A stretch of 8,325 nt of DNA from IMG/VR virus record IMGVR_UViG_2609460221_000006, positions 1 through 8,325 of that record; one strand, 5' to 3'. The position numbers and the translations under genes were made by a program. This document shows positions 1 through 8,325 of the stretch, one piece after another (within the stretch, counting starts at the first letter, position 1; each line of letters begins with the position of its first letter). A model generated the notes under the pieces. That model was not told the origin of the DNA, ran no database searches, and saw only the letters and a program-made list of their open reading frames with translations. This DNA comes from a virus (Duplodnaviria > Heunggongvirae > Uroviricota > Caudoviricetes).

Positions 1-907
1 GTGCATCATCTAACGGGATTTCATCGGTCATAATGGCAGATTGCGCTTCGCGTGATTGCTTAAGCCACCATTTAATGGTGTCCCGATCAATGACTCCGCC
101 AGCAGTTTCCAGATCGATAGTCTTACTAAATTCCGGTCCCATATCTCCGGTTTGCGGATCGAAAAATATTGCACCTATTGAGATAATCGGGGCATCTGGA
201 TTTTTTCCCATGGTTTCAAGGTCGATCATTAGATGGTCACACGTCCCGCTGGTGGATGTGCCTTTATGATGACCGTTCACCTTAACTGAGTGATCTGTCG
301 CCTCGCCAGTTTCACTATCGCTATCGTGATGCTGATTGCCGCCAGGGTTCTCCTTGTGTGGATGTTCAGTGCCTTCCATTTCCTCCGGATCATTTTCCTG
401 AACTTCAACCTGATTCTCTTCATTGAATGTTTCCTGGTATGTTGCGTCGCCCATCACCGCGCCACAATCAGGGCAGTTGCCGCCGCCGGTCTGACCGCAG
501 GCGGTGCAGATCTTTTCCGGTTCCTGTTGCACTACTGGTTCAGGTTGTTTCGTTTCTGGCTCGTTTTGTAACGCATTTGGGCTGTTTTGTTCCGCTTTCT
601 GGCCGTTCTGTTCCGTTTCTTGCTGGTTCTGGTTCACAGAATCGCGGGTTTCCATCCCCTTGACCCATTTCGGATCATTCGGGTCGCTAATCCCTGCAAC
701 AAATTCTCCGCGAGAGGCCGCAAGCAACTTATCGGCGTCAGGCTGGCTGATATTGGCTGCCTGCATAATTTTGTTTACTTCGTCAGCGGTAACTTTTACC
801 TGATTAACCGGATCTATCTGTGCCTGAGTATCCAGCGATTGCGTGTCCTGGCGATGTTCAGTTGTATTCGGCTCCATTGCTTCAGTCGTTGCCTGTTCAT
901 CTGCCAT
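1..907 (-). CDS. recE: RecE-family exonuclease VIII, downstream portion (partial, runs off the window; separated from the N-terminal ORF by a frameshift)
   Basis: Minus-strand frame open from ATG 907 to position 1, translating [30 protein letters not shown]...[30 protein letters not shown]...[16 protein letters not shown]... The [10 protein letters not shown] / [13 protein letters not shown] blocks match what I recall of the middle of E. coli RecE. The same frame is open upstream across the stop of the 936-2144 ORF. Confidence 0.6.
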
Positions 908-935
908 TGCGTCAGACGGTTGTGATTTTTCCTCA

Positions 936-2144
936 TTAATTTTTTTCTTCTTCTGTTTCGCGTTCAGCAGCCAGTTCGCGGTTAACTTCTTCCAGGATAT
1001 CTTTTTCCGGTGTATGTCGTGCAGCAGCGAGAGTTTCCTCGGTAGGGTTCTCGTGATCAGTTTCCGTCAAATAGGCGTTGATATACCCCTGAAGGCGTCC
1101 CGGGTAGTGATAAAATTCAGGGTGTGCGCTTCGGATAAGTGCAAAAATAGCGGCGCGGGAATAATCCAGGATACCCGGGATTGCGCGAAGTGCTGCGGAC
1201 CATTCTTTGAACGGACTTTCTTTCTTCCGGACGACTTCTTTTGCGCGACGATAAACGCTGCCCGGAATTTCATAAATATTAAAATCCATCGGAAGTGTGG
1301 CCGCTGCAATCTCCACATCCAGCGTATCGAAGGTGTGTACTAAATTCGGATTGCGATCGGTTTTGTTCCCTCCACCGGCATTAGCACCGGAAGCCGTGCG
1401 GGTGATGCGTGAAACACGATTTCCTTTCATCCACTCTTTTGTCAGCAGACCGCGATCGGTGTAGTCAGCGCCCAGGTATGCTTCGAAAAAAGCAGTCATC
1501 AGTCCCAGGTCTGAATTACCAGGATTAGGGAAAACTTTGTCCGTGTCACGAACCAGTTTGTGGAGATCGCGAATTTCCAGCGGTTCGAGTTGCGCTGCTT
1601 TATTTGAGATGGCCAGCGCGGTAACGGCGGGAAGTTTTTCATCCTGTGCGTTATGTAATGTGCGCAGTTCGTCCCGCGAAACGTGTGTGATCGGTTTTTC
1701 GCTGCCGTGCTGTGCCAGCCATCGAACAGGCAGAATCTGACCTGAAACCGGCAGGAGCATGTTCTCCTCAATCTCAGCCATGTCTTCGCCGTTGACGTTG
1801 GTATTGTCAGTGCTGGCTGGTTTATCCTGAACAGAGGGCGAGGGCGCGATAAGTACCATTGTGATACCATCTTCACCGCCCTTTTCGTATCGGTTGCAGA
1901 ATTCGGTATCAAACACGCCTTCCGGAGGAAGGTCATTCACAACGGGTAAATGGACGCGAACAGGTTTTTTAAAATCCTCTTTGTCAAATCCGGCATCGTC
2001 CATTGCGACAACACCGCGTGATATTGCAACCGATAATTTTTTTGCTGTGCGCCAGTAAAAACCGCCTTTAATTCCAAGACGTTTTCTGATTTTGTCATTT
2101 TTGGCTTCGTAATATAGTGCAATTTCTTCTTTATCAGTGCTCAT
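936..2144 (-). CDS. recE: RecE-family exonuclease VIII, N-terminal 402 aa (ends at TAA 936-938, probably prematurely)
   Basis: 402-aa ORF with blocks [111 protein letters not shown], recalled as the RecE N-terminal region. GAGG Shine-Dalgarno 8 nt upstream of ATG 2144. Confidence 0.8.
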
Positions 2145-2221: not shown

Positions 2222-2425
2222 TTACGGTGCTGTTTTAAGCCCCGCCGGGATTTCGTTATTGTCCATGTGAATAACTTTATCGACCGGATAACAGTTGCCG
2301 GGAATTTTCTGTTCCGCTGCGGCAGCCATGCATTCTTTCATTGAGTTGTACATGCCGGTGATTGCATCAAGCGACTCACCAGTATTGAGATGTACAGTCA
2401 GAATGAGTACGAATAATGTGTTCAT
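2222..2425 (-). CDS. Small hydrophobic protein, 67 aa, YdfD-like by position (tentative)
   Basis: ATG at 2425 overlaps the dicB stop (ATGA coupling); GGAGA Shine-Dalgarno upstream. N-terminal hydrophobic segment MNTLFVLILTVHL. Its position directly after dicB corresponds to ydfD in the Qin dicB operon; sequence identity to YdfD is not verified. Confidence 0.5.
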   Translation of the reverse strand: MNTLFVLILTVHLNTGESLDAITGMYNSMKECMAAAAEQKIPGNCYPVDKVIHMDNNEIPAGLKTAP

Positions 2426-2610
2426 CGCCACTCTCCGAAAATACCGAGTTTAAGAAGGGCAATTCTGGAGAGTATGGAATTGTCATTCAGCAGGTAGGGT
2501 TCATATTTTCTCATATTGATTGCATCCTCGGTGAAATCCCTGTTACTGAGCAGAACACCAATATTAAAGCACCCGTCAGACGTATTAACGTTTGGTAGTG
2601 ACGTTTCCAT
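2422..2610 (-). CDS. dicB: Cell-division inhibitor DicB homologue, 62 aa
   Basis: Translation METSLPNVNTSDGCFNIGVLLSNRDFTEDAINMRKYEPYLL... matches the recalled DicB signature (LPNVNTSEGCFEIGV...FTEDAINKRK) at the same 62-aa length. GAGGA Shine-Dalgarno 7 nt upstream of ATG 2610; lies just downstream of DicF as in Qin. The ORF track's longer 97-aa version (to 2715) has no support for its N-terminal extension. Confidence 0.8.
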   Translation of the reverse strand: METSLPNVNTSDGCFNIGVLLSNRDFTEDAINMRKYEPYLLNDNSILSRIALLKLGIFGEWR

Positions 2611-2779
2611 TATCGCGTCCTCAACAATGAATTTTGTGATGCGGTGCCTGGTGCCTCCAGGTGACGTTAACCAGTTAACAATTAACGCCGGATACAGAGA
2701 ATCCACCCATAACACTGTTTTTGGTTTTAACTGTTCCGCGTGCGCTCAGCCGCATTCACCACATCACAAAATTCACTTT

Positions 2780-2822
2780 AAAAAGGGCGGCAGAGCAGTC
2801 ACGGAGTAAAACTGATACCGCC
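2780..2822 (-). terminator. Intrinsic terminator hairpin forming the 3' end of DicF
   Basis: Minus strand GGCGGTATCAG...CTGCTCTGCCGCC stem-loop followed by a run of 5 U (plus-strand A 2780-2784). Probably leaky, since dicB lies downstream in the same operon. Confidence 0.6.
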
Positions 2823-2837
2823 AAAAGTCACCAGAAA
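2785..2837 (-). ncRNA. dicF: DicF small RNA (Hfq-dependent ftsZ-targeting sRNA processed from the dicB operon transcript)
   Basis: Minus-strand sequence TTTCTGGTGACTTTTGGCGGTATCAGTTTTACTCCGTGACTGCTCTGCCGCCC followed by TTTTT, matching the 53-nt DicF as I recall it apart from one possible substitution. Ends in a GGCGG...CCGCC hairpin plus U-tract. The 5' end is processed, so it is approximate. Confidence 0.85.
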
Positions 2838-3172
2838 ATTGATAACAGAGGGCGTTGCAGCGGAGTTGTCACTTAAGCGTATGGTCAACCTGACAACCCG
2901 GTGTCCTCAACGGGGGAAGGAATAACCCCGCCATACTTACCGCCGCGCCATTTCGCGGATTGCCACAACCGGAAGCGCACGGTCGACGAAAATTTAACGA
3001 CAGGCTATCTATGAACCAGCTACCTCGCCGTGCGCTTTCGCGTTATGGTCTGACTTTTCAGGGAAATATCCTTTCAGTAAACTGTCAGTGCCGGATGCTC
3101 ACCCGTGTCCGGCGCACGCACTCCACCTCACCCGTGGAGAACTCCTTAATCACCAACCCTCAGGAGGGTGAA

Positions 3173-3448
3173 ATGTCGACTGAAAATGATGAAATCATTA
3201 ACTCCCTGATACGCCAGATTAATAATTTTGATAAAGCATTGCAACATGCTGCGGCGCGTAGTGATATAACTCTTTTAGCAATTTCATTTCTTGCATCTGT
3301 TATGGATAAAAATGAAGTCGTACGACAGAGTCTTGTTGATTATATCGACTCGCTTCAACCCGGCACTTTCAATCATGAGAGCTTCAATCATGAGAAAGAG
3401 CATGTTAAGTCTGTAATTAATTCTCTTATTTTGAATCAAAAGAATTAA
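3173..3448 (+). CDS. Hypothetical protein, 91 aa, in an AT-rich island (unknown function)
   Basis: Strong Shine-Dalgarno CAGGAGGGTGAA directly before ATG 3173. The in-frame upstream part of the ORF-track call (2960-3172) is GC-rich with no RBS and is rejected. Base composition drops sharply at 3173. Predicted mildly acidic and helical, with an FNHES-FNHE tandem repeat; no motif I recognise. Confidence 0.6.
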   Translation: MSTENDEIINSLIRQINNFDKALQHAAARSDITLLAISFLASVMDKNEVVRQSLVDYIDSLQPGTFNHESFNHEKEHVKSVINSLILNQKN

Positions 3449-3746
3449 TGCTTTTTGTTGCAAAGTAATTTTCAAGGGGTTCTATTCGAATCCCTTTCTT
3501 TTTCATTAACAAGCCAAACCCCTTATCAATGATGTCCATTAGATCCAGGAAGTATTTTTCATGTAAATCCTGGTTATCAGAGAGCTGCTTCTCTTCGTAC
3601 AGCCCGATAAAGGCTCGGCGTACGTTACCGGATATATTGTCGATGGTTTCTTTTTCTACGGTACTCAGGTCAAGAGTCGCCAGTTGAGAGCGAACCACAT
3701 TCGATGCCATTTCCTGGAATGGTACTGGTAAATCTTTAAATTCCAT
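3426..3746 (-). CDS. Hypothetical protein, 106 aa, in the AT-rich island (unknown function)
   Basis: ATG 3746 is preceded by GAGGT at good spacing. An alternative ATG at 3758 overlaps the upstream gene's stop (TGATG) and gives 110 aa. Co-oriented with the dicB operon, convergent with 3173-3448 and overlapping its 3' end by 23 bp. Acidic, helical, no recognisable catalytic motif. Confidence 0.6.
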   Translation of the reverse strand: MEFKDLPVPFQEMASNVVRSQLATLDLSTVEKETIDNISGNVRRAFIGLYEEKQLSDNQDLHEKYFLDLMDIIDKGFGLLMKKKGIRIEPLENYFATKSINSFDSK

Positions 3747-3757
3747 CGTCAACCTCA

Positions 3758-3910
3758 TCAGTCAGTGTTTCTGGTTAACCAGCGACGCGCGCCAGCTTCA
3801 GTTTTAAACGTTTTGCTTCTGGTATATGTCATCGCGGTAAACGTGCCGTCCTGGTTGGGAAACACGCCGCATACCAGAGATTCGTTGTTGCCAAGCTCGA
3901 TAGTATCCAT
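3758..3910 (-). CDS. Small protein, 50 aa, YdfA-like (DUF1391-like, tentative); first gene of the leftward operon
   Basis: ATG 3910 has a GAGGT Shine-Dalgarno 5 nt upstream. The longest ORF starts at 3991 (77 aa) but with a weaker RBS. Product MDTIELGNNESLVCGVFPNQDGTFTAMTYTRSKTFKTEAGARRWL resembles, from memory, the ~51-aa YdfA that heads the Qin dicB operon. Confidence 0.5.
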   Translation of the reverse strand: MDTIELGNNESLVCGVFPNQDGTFTAMTYTRSKTFKTEAGARRWLTRNTD

Positions 3911-4091
3911 GCTGACCTCATTTCCCCTTAACGCCGGGGTAGCGGAACAAAAACCTGCTGCATAGTTATTAAAGTTGAACCCTGCCGTCATGTTCTTACG
4001 CCTCGGGCTGGCTACTTAACCCCTGACCACTGCCGGGTAACTCGAAGTATTGCCTGGCGTTCTGTGGGGCGGGGTGGGTTGATGAATGAAC

Positions 4092-4131
4092 AATACCACT
4101 ACTATTTAATTATGTAAATAGCAGTGCTATT
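4092..4131. promoter_or_regulatory. Leftward (PL-like) operator region: two copies of a 16-bp AAATAG-N4-G(C/G)TATT site in opposite orientations
   Basis: 4116-4131 is AAATAGCAGTGCTATT on the plus strand; 4092-4107 reads AAATAGTAGTGGTATT on the minus strand. Together they form a 30-bp near-palindrome (4097-4126). The same motif occurs twice in the repressor/cro intergenic region. Lies upstream of the leftward operon, with TTTACA / TATTGT-like hexamers nearby on the minus strand. Confidence 0.45.
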
Positions 4132-4142
4132 ATCGTGGCAAG

Positions 4143-4164
4143 AAAAAAAACCACCCGAAGGTGG
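4143..4164 (-). terminator. Rho-independent terminator ending the paaR2-paaA2-parE2 operon
   Basis: Minus strand CCACC-TTCG-GGTGG hairpin immediately followed by 8 U (plus-strand A 4143-4150), 17 nt downstream of the parE stop. Confidence 0.7.
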
Positions 4165-4180
4165 TTGTTGACAGGAAGGA

Positions 4181-4471
4181 TTAACAGGTTTTGTTTGGAT
4201 ACTGTCTTCGTGAGTGAACTACATTTACGATCTCGATGTTAGATGCTGTTACTCGGTAAAGTATTATGTAGTTAGGATGAGTCACTATCTCACGAAGACT
4301 TGGAACTCTTTCGCTCGGTGGGTACAGATAAGGGTGTTCAGTAAGTGACAAAACTGATGTTTCAATGCGTATTTTTAGTCTACGTGCAGCGGGAGGGTTT
4401 TCCTTAGCAATATAGGCTACGATCTGACGTAAATCATCACGTGCAGAAGGTAGCCATAAAATGGGCAGCAT
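4181..4471 (-). CDS. parE2: ParE/RelE-family type II toxin, 96 aa (ParE2-like)
   Basis: Translation MLPILWLPSARDDLRQIVAYIAKENPPAARRL...REIVTHPNYIILYRV...IEIVNVVHSRR shows the ParE/RelE pattern. Start overlaps the stop of the upstream antitoxin ORF, a typical toxin-antitoxin arrangement. Confidence 0.85.
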   Translation of the reverse strand: MLPILWLPSARDDLRQIVAYIAKENPPAARRLKIRIETSVLSLTEHPYLYPPSERVPSLREIVTHPNYIILYRVTASNIEIVNVVHSRRQYPNKTC

Positions 4472-4662
4472 TACTCACTCCTGTTCGTTGCAGCTAATTG
4501 AGCAATAAGGTTTTCCATTTCAGCCATTACTTCGTCATGTGGAATTGCAGGACGGGGATCTGAGAGGCTTGCTGCCACTTTGGTTCGCAACCATTCGTTA
4601 TAGCTGTTTTCTTGTTCGACTGTTTCAAATTCAGAAATTATCGGGGAAAGGGCTGTACTCAT
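4471..4662 (-). CDS. paaA2: Small antitoxin, 63 aa (PaaA2-like), partner of ParE2
   Basis: 63-aa acidic ORF immediately upstream of, and coupled to, the ParE gene. GAGGAGG Shine-Dalgarno 7 nt before ATG 4662. Size and context fit the PaaA2 antitoxin of the paaR2-paaA2-parE2 module described in E. coli O157:H7 prophages; the name is by synteny and recall. Confidence 0.7.
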   Translation of the reverse strand: MSTALSPIISEFETVEQENSYNEWLRTKVAASLSDPRPAIPHDEVMAEMENLIAQLAATNRSE

Positions 4663-4679
4663 GTTTTTACCTCCTCAGA

Positions 4680-5181
4680 TTAGGCGCGACGACCCTTTTG
4701 CGCAGCTAGCCATCGCGCAACGATTTCTTCAATTGATTCTTTTTTCTCCTTCATTTCCTTAAGCATTTTCTCTTTATCTTCTTTGGGGAAAGCCCTGAAC
4801 GTCTGGAGCAAATCCCGCTCCATGGGGTCTATATTAAACGGAAGTTCGTTTTCCGATTGTTCCATATCTGCAGATATAGTGACAACATTGTCCTCCCCAG
4901 ATTCTTGGGGATACATCCTTACAATTTGTAACAACTCGGCCATATCTGGTCTGATTGACTCGGGAGGAACTTGCAGCAACCCTGCGAACTTGATAACAGC
5001 CTCAAGATTTAAAGGTGTCTGACCATTTAGATAATGGCTTACAGCTCCCTGTGTCGAAAATCCCAGAATTTCTGCCGCACGCTCTTGGGTTAACCCTAGT
5101 TGAATTTTTTTTCGCCGTCCAGATTTCTTTCAGTCTCTGGGCGGCTTGCAGGTCGATCTCTGACAGGGATTTTCTTTTCAT
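4680..5181 (-). pseudogene. paaR2: Lambda cI-like HTH repressor (PaaR2-like), reading frame broken in an A8 run
   Basis: ATG 5181 with GAAGG Shine-Dalgarno gives MKRKSLSEIDLQAAQRLKEIWTAKK, then the frame is lost in the A8 run (plus-strand T 5105-5112). The -1 frame continues (KK)IQLGLTQERAAEILGFSTQGAVSHYLNGQTPLNLEAVIKFAGLLQVPPESIRPDM... to TAA 4680. The joined N-terminus closely resembles the lambda CI N-terminal domain ([27 protein letters not shown]...). The intact-frame tail is the 4680-4979 ORF in the track. Confidence 0.75.
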
Positions 5182-5288
5182 ACCTTCAATTCTAATAAGA
5201 TTATTAATCTCTTTGAAATAGTGATGCTATTTACTTTTAAAAATAACAATGCTATTAATGATCGTGATGACATCACATGAGGTGAACA
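5182..5288. promoter_or_regulatory. Divergent promoter/operator region between the cI-like and cro-like genes (PRM/PR analogue)
   Basis: Two direct copies of the 16-bp motif, AAATAGTGATGCTATT (5216-5231) and AAATAACAATGCTATT (5241-5256), 25 bp centre to centre. A 13-bp perfect palindrome GTGATGACATCAC (5264-5276) and TAATAA-GA-TTATTA (5193-5206). Candidate rightward promoter TTTACT-N17-TATTAA. GAGGTG Shine-Dalgarno before ATG 5289. Confidence 0.55.
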
Positions 5289-5564
5289 ATGAATCTTGGA
5301 GAATATTTGCATCATTCCGGTATAACTCAGAAGCATTTTGCTGAAATTGTTGGGGTAACCCAAGGGATGGTAAGCCATGTCATTACCGGACGGGCGAAAC
5401 TTACGGGGAAAAAAATTTTACGCTGGTGCGAAGCAACAGGCTGGATAGTAACTCCGCACGAGATTGATGGCAGTACTTATCCCAACCCAACCGACGGCTT
5501 ACCTGTCGAGTATCAGGCTAACACACAACCAGAGGCGGGGGTGATTCATGAAAATCAAGCATGA
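5289..5564 (+). CDS. ydaS: Cro-like HTH DNA-binding protein, 91 aa (YdaS-like)
   Basis: HTH segment ITQKHFAEIVGVTQGMVSHVITG. Divergent from the cI-like gene across an operator-rich spacer; Shine-Dalgarno GAGGTG at 5279-5284. Confidence 0.8.
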   Translation: MNLGEYLHHSGITQKHFAEIVGVTQGMVSHVITGRAKLTGKKILRWCEATGWIVTPHEIDGSTYPNPTDGLPVEYQANTQPEAGVIHENQA

Positions 5565-5584
5565 ACACATCCGCATGGCAATGA

Positions 5585-5974
5585 ATGCCTGGGCGCATCC
5601 GGACGGCGAAAAAAGTACCGGCTGCGAAAATTACCAAAGCGTATTTCGAGCTGGGAATGACGTTCCCGGAACTGTATGACGACAGCCATCCGGAAGCCCT
5701 GGCCCGTAATACCCAGAAAATTTTCCGTTGGCTGGATAAAGACACCCCTGATGCTGTTGAAAAAATGCAGGCTCTGTTACCGGCGATCGAAAAGGCGATG
5801 CCGCCTTTGCTGGTGGCCCGTATGCGCAGCCACAGTTCTGAATATTACCGTGAGATCGTCGAACGGAGGGATCGGCTGGTGAAGGATGTCGATGATTTTG
5901 TTGCGTCAGCGGTTGTTTTGTATGACCAGATGAATCGCGGCGGCCCGGCAGGGAATGCTGTGGTGATGCACTAA
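5585..5974 (+). CDS. ydaT: YdaT-like (CII-analogue) protein; longest intact frame shown, native start probably ATG 5548 with a frameshift in an A6 run
   Basis: The 129-aa ORF from ATG 5585 has no Shine-Dalgarno and begins right after an in-frame TGA. ATG 5548 has a strong GAGGCGGGGG RBS and overlaps the cro-like stop; it encodes MKIKHEHIRMAMNAWAHPDGEK and then leaves the frame at the A6 run 5609-5614. One A fewer would give a ~140-aa product, the size I recall for YdaT. The gene name is by synteny with Rac ydaS-ydaT. Confidence 0.6.
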   Translation: MPGRIRTAKKVPAAKITKAYFELGMTFPELYDDSHPEALARNTQKIFRWLDKDTPDAVEKMQALLPAIEKAMPPLLVARMRSHSSEYYREIVERRDRLVKDVDDFVASAVVLYDQMNRGGPAGNAVVMH

Positions 5975-5996
5975 AAGCACGGTGTTCGGGGGTTTT

Positions 5997-6959
5997 ATGA
6001 GCAGCAAGCTTCATGGTCTTGTCTGGGAAGGGTGCGCCTTCACCGGCATGATCTTATCCAGGGTGGCGGTTATGGCCCGTCTTGCAGACTACAGCAATGA
6101 CGAGGGCGTGTCATGGCCTGCCATTGAAACTATCCGGCGTCAGATCGGTGCAAGAAGTGAATCCACAGTGAAATCGGCTATTGCAGAACTGGCGAAAGAG
6201 GGCTGGCTGACGAAGGAAGAGCGTAAGGTCGGTGGGCGTAATGTAAGCAATATCTATCGGCTTAATGTGGAAAAACTCGAAGCAGCTGCGGCGGCGGCGC
6301 GTGAGTCATATAAACCGAAAAGAAAAATTAGCCCGGCAAAAAATGACCCGTTAACAGTTGACCCGTCAAATATTGCCCCCTCAACGGTTGACCCGTCAAA
6401 TTTTGATGGATCAACTGTTGATAAAAAACTGCCGATTAGGGGGGCGATGATTGACCCCGATCCGTCAGTATTAAAACCTGATCCGTCAGATAAAAGATCT
6501 TCTTGTCCGGACGCTTCGCAACCGGACCCGCAGACGGCTGAACAGGATTTTTTAACCCGACACCCTGACGCGGTTGTGTTCAGTGCGAAAAAACGCCAGT
6601 GGGGAAGTCAGGAAGATTTGGTGTGCGCACAGTGGATCTGGGGACGAATCGTGAGTCTTTACGAGCAGGCGGCCAGCTATGATGGCGAGATCACTAGACC
6701 GAAAGAACCCAACTGGACAGCATGGGCCAATGACGTTCGCACAATGCGGATGCTGGATGGCAGAACTCACAGACAAATTTGTGAAATGTTTGGGCGTCTC
6801 CAGCGGGATTCGTTCTGGGTAAAAAACATCATGAGTCCGGCAAAACTCCGGGAAAAATGGGATGAACTGGTTATCCGCCTGGGGCGTTCGCCTGCGCAGC
6901 GTTGCGTGAATCACATTTCTGAACCGGACACTGAAATACCGCCGGGATTCAGGGGGTGA
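5997..6959 (+). CDS. Replication initiator, lambda O analogue (YdaU-like), with origin iterons inside the gene
   Basis: 321-aa ORF from ATG 5997 (GGGGG upstream); GTG 5982 is an alternative start. N-terminal winged-helix-like region ...VSWPAIETIRRQIGARSESTVKSAIAELAKEGWL. The central coding region carries tandem DNA repeats that encode the repeated TVDPSN / DPS peptides. Sits between the cII-like gene and the DnaC-like loader. Confidence 0.7.
   Translation: MSSKLHGLVWEGCAFTGMILSRVAVMARLADYSNDEGVSWPAIETIRRQIGARSESTVKSAIAELAKEGWLTKEERKVGGRNVSNIYRLNVEKLEAAAAAARESYKPKRKISPAKNDPLTVDPSNIAPSTVDPSNFDGSTVDKKLPIRGAMIDPDPSVLKPDPSDKRSSCPDASQPDPQTAEQDFLTRHPDAVVFSAKKRQWGSQEDLVCAQWIWGRIVSLYEQAASYDGEITRPKEPNWTAWANDVRTMRMLDGRTHRQICEMFGRLQRDSFWVKNIMSPAKLREKWDELVIRLGRSPAQRCVNHISEPDTEIPPGFRG
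6356..6489. repeat. Iteron cluster: putative replication origin within the O-like gene
   Basis: AGTTGACCCGTCAAAT at 6356-6371 and GGTTGACCCGTCAAAT at 6386-6401 (each containing the inverted pair TTGAC/GTCAA), TGTTGATAAAAAA at 6417-6429, and GATCCGTCAG at 6458-6467 and 6480-6489. Iterons inside the initiator gene are the lambda ori arrangement. Confidence 0.55.
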
Positions 6960-6965
6960 CGTGTC

Positions 6966-7712
6966 ATGAAAAACATTGCGGCAGTTGGGGTTCTTGAACG
7001 TATTCGCAGACTTGCACCACAGGGGTCGGTTCCACCGTACCGGACGGTGGAGGAGTGGCGGGAATGGCAACTTGCTGAAGGACGAAAACGCAGCGAGGAG
7101 ATTAACCGCCAGAATCGCCAGTTGCGGGTGGAAAAAATCCTGAATCGTTCGGGCATCCAGCCTCTGCACAGCAAATGCTCGTTTGCAAATTATCAGGTGC
7201 AGAACGACGGGCAAAAATACGCGCTGAGCCAGGCCAAATCCATAGCTGACGAACTGATGACCGGGTGCACGAATTTTGTGTTCAGCGGTAAAACCGGCAC
7301 CGGGAAAAATCACCTTGCAGCGGCGATGGGCAACCGGCTGATGGTGAAGGGGCGCAGCGTGATTATCGTCACCGTGTCTGACGTCATGAGCGTGTTGCAT
7401 GACAGCTACGACAACGGCAAATCCGGGGAAAAATTTTTACAGGAGCTTTGCGGGGTTGATTTGCTGGTCCTGGATGAAATAGGCGTTCAGCGGGAGACGA
7501 AAAACGAGCAGGTGGTATTGCACCAGATAATTGATCGCCGGACAGCATCACTGTGCAGTGTCGGGATGTTAACAAACCTGAATCATGCCGCAATGAGTAC
7601 GCTTCTTGGTGAGAGGATTATGGACCGCATGACCATGAACGGTGGTCGATGGGTGACGTTTAACTGGGATAGCTGGCGTCCAAATGTCAGCAATATGAGG
7701 GTTGTGAAGTAA
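6966..7712 (+). CDS. ydaV: DnaC-like helicase loader / IstB-like AAA+ ATPase, 248 aa (YdaV-like)
   Basis: Walker A FSGKTGTGKNHLAAAMG and Walker B DLLVLDEIG. AGGGGG Shine-Dalgarno before ATG 6966, which follows the O-like stop by 6 nt. Confidence 0.85.
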   Translation: MKNIAAVGVLERIRRLAPQGSVPPYRTVEEWREWQLAEGRKRSEEINRQNRQLRVEKILNRSGIQPLHSKCSFANYQVQNDGQKYALSQAKSIADELMTGCTNFVFSGKTGTGKNHLAAAMGNRLMVKGRSVIIVTVSDVMSVLHDSYDNGKSGEKFLQELCGVDLLVLDEIGVQRETKNEQVVLHQIIDRRTASLCSVGMLTNLNHAAMSTLLGERIMDRMTMNGGRWVTFNWDSWRPNVSNMRVVK

Positions 7713-7733
7713 TTTTGTCCGGAGGAAATTTTA

Positions 7734-8325
7734 ATGGAAACCGTATCTGACGCACTGAAAGCACTGAAAAAAGCCTCTTCACATGTGGTGGCAGCTCGCC
7801 TTGGAATCAGTCGTGAAGAGGCTGTCAACGAGCTGTGGGAACTCAAAAGAAAAGGCGTCGTTGATAAAACTGGTCACACCTGGTTTCTGGCTGGCGAAGG
7901 TGAATCCCGGGTAACCGAAGAGCGGCCAGTAAAATCTGAAGCACAGGATATGCTGACCGGGGAGGTCGAACAAAAAGTTACCGCAGACATGATGATTGAG
8001 TTTATCGGTCAGGATGGGGCTAAAACGTGTGAGGAACTGGCGGGTAAGTTCAGTGTCAGTACTCGCAAGGTTGCTTCCACGCTGGCGGTGGTAACCGCAA
8101 CGGGGCGGCTGGCACGCGTTAATCAGAACGGTAAATTTCGTTACTGCATGCCGGGCGATAATTTACCAGCAGAGCCGAAAGCCGCGCTGGTAACGGAAAG
8201 TGATGGTAAGGCCTTTCCTCAGCCAGCAGGTGCTGCGTTACCAGTCCGGGAAGCCGCAACACAGGAAGAAATTAAAACAGAAACTGTGGCGGACATTGTG
8301 CAGCCGTTGCCATCGTTTACCGAAA
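7734..8325 (+). CDS. Hypothetical prophage protein, partial (runs off the right edge), with two winged-helix-like segments
   Basis: GGAGGA Shine-Dalgarno 7 nt before ATG 7734; frame open to the window end (197 codons), so it is absent from the ORF track. Translation METVSDALKALKKASSHVVAARLGISREEAVNELWELKRKGVVDK...CEELAGKFSVSTRKVASTLAVVTATGRLARV. Corresponds in position to the gene after ydaV in Rac. Confidence 0.6.
   Translation, partial: METVSDALKALKKASSHVVAARLGISREEAVNELWELKRKGVVDKTGHTWFLAGEGESRVTEERPVKSEAQDMLTGEVEQKVTADMMIEFIGQDGAKTCEELAGKFSVSTRKVASTLAVVTATGRLARVNQNGKFRYCMPGDNLPAEPKAALVTESDGKAFPQPAGAALPVREAATQEEIKTETVADIVQPLPSFTE

Follow-up and report, generated by a model that had tools for sequence, protein, structure and literature searches.

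YdaT of the cryptic prophage CP-933P in E. coli O157:H7 is the closest described counterpart of the gene considered here (Jurenas et al. 2021, mBio, PMC8630535; Prolic-Kalinsek et al. 2023, Acta Cryst D, PMC9986795). Rather than being a toxin, the protein is functionally equivalent to lambda CII; it assembles into a tetramer, and its N-terminal domain is a POU-type HTH. Its binding target is the inverted repeat TTGATTN6AATCAA (the operator OM) where ydaS and ydaT meet, and the protein switches on a PRE-like promoter of the paaR2-paaA2-parE2 operon (PMC8630535, PMC9986795). Like the gene for CII, ydaT is situated immediately 3' of cro in the immunity region, and like CII its product has been reported to act as a tetramer that activates a leftward PRE-type promoter for repressor expression (PMC8630535). 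Nevertheless, YdaT lacks sequence similarity to CII and has the fold of a POU-type HTH protein (PMC9986795). YdaT of the Rac prophage of E. coli K-12 (Pfam PF06254, "YdaT_toxin") belongs to the same family and is encoded in the same ydaS-ydaT order, but is about 31% identical to the CP-933P type (PMC8630535). The "toxin" label of the Rac protein and of PF06254 is disputed (PMC8630535). Earlier papers thus already describe ydaT together with its structure and role. Tetramer formation, DNA binding and PRE activation were described for a protein that differs by one residue from the one discussed below, to which they are carried over here by similarity.

The window (the whole stretch of DNA that was analysed, 8,325 nucleotides long) contains a ydaT gene of the CP-933P type. 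In the sequence as it stands, this gene is interrupted by a single additional A. The protein obtained when the A is removed has 139 of 140 aligned residues in common with CP-933P YdaT. As in CP-933P, the gene overlaps the 3' end of ydaS, precedes an O-like gene and faces a repressor-PaaA2-ParE operon, and an OM-like operator is found at the ydaS/ydaT junction. The two loci differ in that the ORF is broken here by a change from A5 to A6, that the operator of the window has one mismatch, and that the repressor is of another immunity type (166 residues beginning with MKRKS, versus MQKKE in PaaR2). The features of the locus and the single-base insertions found in the window are listed in Table 1.

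Table 1. Features of the ydaT locus and positions of the single-base insertions, in window coordinates
Feature	Position	Strand	Remarks
Exonuclease gene	1-2144	-	About 818 aa when not truncated
Insertion of one A	938/939	gene on -	AAT AAT becomes AAT TAA on the coding strand; exonuclease cut at residue 402
Insertion, A8 versus A7	4143-4150	-	T-tail of the terminator-like hairpin after the parE-like gene
Minus-strand terminator-like hairpin AACCACCTTCGGGTGGTT, then T-run	4143-4166	-	After the parE-like gene
PaaA2-type antitoxin (PF21217) and ParE toxin (PF05016) genes	4181-4662	-	Directly downstream of the repressor gene
Divergent HTH repressor gene	4680-5181	-	ORF map and Pfam
Insertion of one A on the + strand	5103/5104	gene on -	166-aa HTH repressor split after codon 26, upstream of its HTH
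ydaS/cro-like HTH gene	5289-5564	+	Pfam HTH_3; 3' end shares 17 nt with the ydaT start
Shine-Dalgarno-like GGGGGTGA for ATG 5548	5537-5544	+	Read from the sequence
OM-like inverted repeat GTGATTCATGAAAATCAA, putative YdaT operator	5541-5558	+	Covers the ydaT start codon
ydaT gene (CII-equivalent regulator), disrupted	5548-5974	+	Restored by removing one A of 5609-5614
5' fragment ORF, 43 codons	5548-5679	+	22 native YdaT residues (including helix alpha1), 21 out-of-frame residues, stop at 5677-5679
3' ORF, 129 codons	5585-5974	+	Native YdaT from Val23 (5615); first 10 codons out of frame
A6 run, single-base insertion site	5609-5614	+	A6 versus A5, ydaT split; A5 in all intact relatives (pairwise and multiple alignments)
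O-like (HTH_36) and DnaC/IstB-like replication genes	3' of ydaS-ydaT		Pfam

Instead of the single uninterrupted ORF of about 141 codons expected of a ydaT, the locus has two overlapping ORFs of 43 and 129 codons. The sequence-only reading had interpreted these as the start and the main part of one gene, and the details on which it relied are borne out. The ATG at 5548, for which a strong ribosome-binding site had been claimed, is preceded by a Shine-Dalgarno-like sequence and lies within the end of the cro-like gene; the 17-nt overlap is also annotated in the relatives. The frame opened by this ATG is as short as had been stated. The main ORF is in the +1 frame and begins right after a TGA (5582-5584), and its first ATG, at 5585, has no Shine-Dalgarno-like sequence upstream on inspection of the sequence. 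The A6 run is present inside the region that is open in both frames. Upon removal of one A, the two frames join into a CDS of 426 nt that encodes 141 residues, in agreement with the predicted protein of about 140 residues, and the translation is the predicted one (MKIKHEHIRMAMNAWAHPDGEKVPAAKITKAYFELGMTFPELYDD...). The site of the indel had been proposed with the reservation that any single base in the overlap would do. It proved to be exact: over 481 nt, nothing but the change from A5 to A6 distinguishes the window from the relatives.

A true short YdaT isoform, initiated at ATG 5585, was considered and rejected. This ATG lacks a Shine-Dalgarno sequence, the first 10 codons that follow it are out of frame, and the product would lose helix alpha1 of the rigid POU domain. 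Moreover, the other carriers of the exact 129-residue product, two assemblies, both have A6. The ORFs at 5548-5679 and 5585-5974 should be annotated as one ydaT gene with a frameshift or a sequence error, and the 129-residue ORF should not be annotated as a new short form of YdaT.

Judged by its sequence, the disrupted gene is a ydaT. Homologues of positions 5500-5980 were found by megablast in 3,055 of 5,426 complete E. coli genomes, where they are annotated as "toxin YdaT family protein". The best of these matches have an identity of 99.8% and are 480 nt long, versus 481 nt for the query. The repaired CDS, with one A deleted, is identical at 426 of 426 nt to a CDS of E. coli O104:H4 2009EL-2071 (WP_000693845.1, 141 aa; positions 6049-6474 of locus L001), and when this genome is aligned with the 481 nt of the query, A5 versus A6 is the single difference. 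The repaired protein matches Pfam PF06254 with 40.9 bits (cutoff 21, E=2.8e-10), a family that the precomputed hits also assign to the 129-residue ORF. Among known structures, it matches that of CP-933P YdaT (PDB 8BT1) over residues 2-141 with E=2.7e-92, and 3C4R with E=1.8e-80. A search of NCBIfam with the repaired protein gave no match. The description of the gene as ydaT-like, made earlier from the letters alone, is thus upheld by a Pfam score above the cutoff and by the near identity to 8BT1.

The N-terminus of the joined translation is conserved. When it is aligned with YdaT homologues, the MKIKHEH start is found in all eight intact relatives, four of which are phages, and none of the eight begins at the equivalent of MPGRIRT, the start that would have spoken against the join. 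In the crystal structure, the model begins at Lys2 and helix alpha1 is formed by Glu6-His17 (PMC9986795). This helix and the conservation of MKIKHEH show that the 22 residues encoded 5' of the shift belong to the folded DNA-binding domain. Substitutions among the intact homologues are biased towards the third codon position, the frame being the same 5' and 3' of the A-run, and these homologues appear to be translated in one continuous frame across it. In phage 606R7, for instance, the three codon positions have 14/12/43 substitutions in all, and 0/0/3 within the first 66 nt.

The surroundings of the gene are those of a ydaT. It overlaps the cro-like ydaS, precedes the replication genes and is divergent from the repressor gene, and this arrangement is laid out identically in annotated relatives. 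The repressor, antitoxin and toxin genes have the same tripartite order as paaR2-paaA2-parE2 of CP-933P, with the other repressor allele (MKRKS..., 166 aa). The OM-like repeat GTGATTCATGAAAATCAA differs at one position from TTGATTN6AATCAA, the operator defined in PMC9986795, having GTGATT in place of TTGATT; an O157 relative has a perfect copy of OM in the same place. When two mismatches were allowed, at least two OM-like hits were also obtained in 34 of 200 shuffled sequences. The support for the operator therefore comes from its position and not from the number of hits.

The locus is the ydaT of an E. coli lambdoid prophage whose immunity region is of the CP-933P type. By analogy with the published system, its intact product, a POU/HTH tetrameric DNA-binding protein, would bind OM at the ydaS/ydaT junction in the manner of CII and would turn on a leftward PRE-type promoter that drives the repressor operon. 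On the opposite strand, a promoter-like sequence (TTCAAA-17-TAGAAT, 5189-5217, minus strand) stops 8 nt short of the repressor start codon (ATG at 5181). Its position suggests that the repressor mRNA may be leaderless or nearly leaderless, as has been reported for paaR2 and for lambda cI.

The A6 state of the run is rare. Neither of the two A6 alleles has a 100% match in the 5,426 complete E. coli genomes, and the best matches there are one base shorter. Among the loci that were fetched, 127 of 130 have A5 and three have A6, the A6 loci being from two or three other assemblies. In IMG/VR, A6 occurs on one contig and A5 on at least 120. The same imbalance is found for the proteins, the intact YdaT being encoded on at least 1,000 contigs and the 129-residue product on one or two. 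The exact 40-mer that contains the A6 of the window has no match in the genome, metagenome or viral contig collections. Neither the 43-residue product of the frameshifted ydaT nor the 59-residue product of the frameshifted repressor gene is on record in the protein collections searched. H13 (Z1322HEC0009), which had been suggested as an A6 carrier by the 481-nt length of its match, has A5 and an intact gene, and phage 204576 also has A5 in the alignment.

Besides the window, A6 is carried by E. coli ISC41, which is also represented by a contig in IMG/VR, and by one Logan contig (SRR16060697). Both have another allelic background, with GTG versus GTA at the codon next to the run and with a P22-Cro-type neighbour. 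As the same change from A5 to A6 is found on a different background, the event has recurred. Across about 4 kb, the ISC41 draft (GCA_000529555.1) has three homopolymer +1 insertions and a single substitution relative to EC958. The insertions (positions 4612, 5856 and 6025 of locus L004) change T4 to T5, A3 to A4 in cro and A5 to A6 in ydaT, and the truncation of the cro and ydaT calls of ISC41 is probably an artefact. The IMG/VR contig, UViG_2617271071_000004 (L014), is the ISC41 sequence over the stretch read, both extra A's included. Over 4,265 nt, the Logan assembly of SRR16060697 departs from EC958 only by its A6.

The overlap of two open frames at a run of lysine codons raises the question of whether the A6 run is functional, with a ribosomal +1 slip, transcriptional slippage or a phase-variable on/off switch tuning the CII-like regulator. 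A P-site slip of tRNA-Lys from AAA (5611-5613) to AAA (5612-5614) would give exactly the native ...DGEK-VPAAK..., and the 111 nt around the run (5590-5700) fold more stably than shuffled sequences (z=-3.3). The same length change is, in addition, present in at least two backgrounds. However, the eight aligned intact homologues, four of them from phages, have A5 and a single ORF, as do the great majority of the fetched loci at the level of the run (127 of 130) and all best matches among the complete genomes. The A-site codon is AGU, which does not belong to the stop codons or the rare Arg codons, and inspection of the sequence shows no Shine-Dalgarno-like element 3 nt upstream of the slip site. 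Efficient transcriptional slippage and typical contingency loci need about 8-9 A's, and the run has only six. The Rfam scan of the window returned no recoding element, DicF being the only hit.

The structure predicted for 5590-5700 places the A-run in a loop. Its use as a stimulatory RNA structure was rejected, because the O157 allele disrupts the UCCGGA/UCCGGA helix with no compensating change and covariation gives the structure no support. A phase-variable locus would have a polymorphic tract with both states common, but A5 is nearly fixed here, and a two-frame architecture is not conserved, every intact homologue having A5 and one ORF. A functional A6 would also leave the other three insertions of an A in the window unexplained. 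We consider such a function scarcely credible. A programmed +1 frameshift and transcriptional slippage were both rejected, as neither conservation nor stimulators could be found. The earlier label of a "probable +1 frameshift" is therefore correct as regards the one-base insertion and does not hold for programmed ribosomal frameshifting, since the A6 state is not conserved. Like the prfB +1 and dnaX -1 sites and the A6G/A7 sites of IS elements, the run is a slippery lysine A-run where two frames overlap. Unlike them, it is not conserved, lacks stimulators and has homologues with an uninterrupted ORF, and the ydaT A6 site is not a member of the programmed frameshift or slippage class.

The insertion in ydaT is one of four in the window. 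Compared with a prophage of E. coli 7/2, positions 1-2635 have one insertion (938/939) and no substitutions, and positions 2411-8325 have three insertions and no substitutions relative to a prophage of WP4-W18-ESBL-09. Relative to these nearest relatives, all four insertions in the 8.3 kb are of an A on the plus strand. The repressor, which is the 166-residue HTH protein WP_000824162.1 in the relatives, is encoded here by an ORF of 59 residues (5002-5181) and one of 99 residues (4680-4979), and the HTH (residues 25-73) is lost by this split. The only match to the 402-residue exonuclease fragment is a Logan contig that ends at that very point, and this match is therefore uninformative. As three of the four insertions disrupt genes, including the repressor of the prophage, selection has not filtered them.

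The three further stray insertions of an A, together with the absence of any other changes in the window, make a sequence error the most likely explanation. We therefore put a probability of roughly 75% on the extra A in ydaT being an error of consensus, sequencing or assembly, a judgement that is drawn from the pattern of differences. The gene would then be cut by an extra A, in a run of five in every intact relative, that is absent in the organism itself. The ISC41 draft, which has the same A6, lends support to an error, as it shows the same kind of homopolymer insertions. Two observations fit less well. In the Logan assembly of SRR16060697 the A6 stands alone, and if this assembly is from Illumina data, the run does mutate in real strains. 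The insertions at 938/939 and 5103/5104 are duplications of a single A beside a long T run, with no long run being lengthened, and are less typical of classic homopolymer miscalls.

The extra A may, on the other hand, be a genuine mutation, in which replication slippage from A5 to A6 has made ydaT a pseudogene of a decaying or cryptic prophage. This is possible, though unlikely. Frameshifts are common in cryptic prophages, the relatives have annotated frameshifted pseudogenes nearby, and the change recurs on another background in ISC41 and the Logan assembly. The CII-type functions are dispensable for the maintenance of lysogeny, so that their loss would be neutral. In E. coli, the natural ratio of indels to substitutions is about 1:10, and in mismatch-repair mutators, too, substitutions outnumber indels. 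With four indels but not one substitution, the 8.3 kb are far from such ratios, and a genuine mutation would also have to be reconciled with the occurrence of all four on one strand as an added A and with the absence of the A6 allele from every complete E. coli genome.

Selection could be invoked if the repressor were truly broken, as the loss of ydaT would remove a product of the derepressed rightward operon and could be favoured. Loss of the Rac repressor is harmful through the expression of ydaS/ydaT (discussed in PMC8630535 and references therein). However, CP-933P YdaT was reported to be non-toxic (PMC8630535), which weakens the argument that loss of ydaT was selected. A frameshifted repressor upstream of the addictive PaaA2/ParE module would, moreover, be expected to make the prophage unstable, as may be deduced from PMC8630535. 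In a more elaborate form, the A5 run at codons 21-22 would be a real recurrent hotspot at which the CII-like regulator is switched off, residual protein being made by a +1 slip of tRNA-Lys, and the window would represent the off-state allele, perhaps co-selected with the loss of the repressor. We regard this as very improbable.

With a sequence error as the preferred reading, the finding is an ordinary one: a known, structurally characterised prophage regulator gene with a trivial one-base lesion, which essentially none of the relatives share. The window should be flagged as containing several single-base insertion errors. Since the insertions also break the repressor and exonuclease genes, other apparent frameshifts reported from the same source are suspect.

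The window is a mosaic. Apart from the insertion, its left part is identical to the prophage that adjoins potD in E. coli 7/2. On the right, the window corresponds, apart from the insertions, to a different prophage, that of WP4-W18-ESBL-09, a strain which has sequence of the left type elsewhere in its chromosome. At most 86% of the window is covered in one place in any complete E. coli genome. The mosaic may have arisen by true recombination or through chimeric joining over the 225 nt that are shared. The window also contains the gene of the sRNA DicF (RF00039 in Rfam, 75.8 bits; 2785-2836, minus strand), situated beside dicB and DUF1482 genes, a set that is typical of the left arms of Qin/Rac-like prophages.
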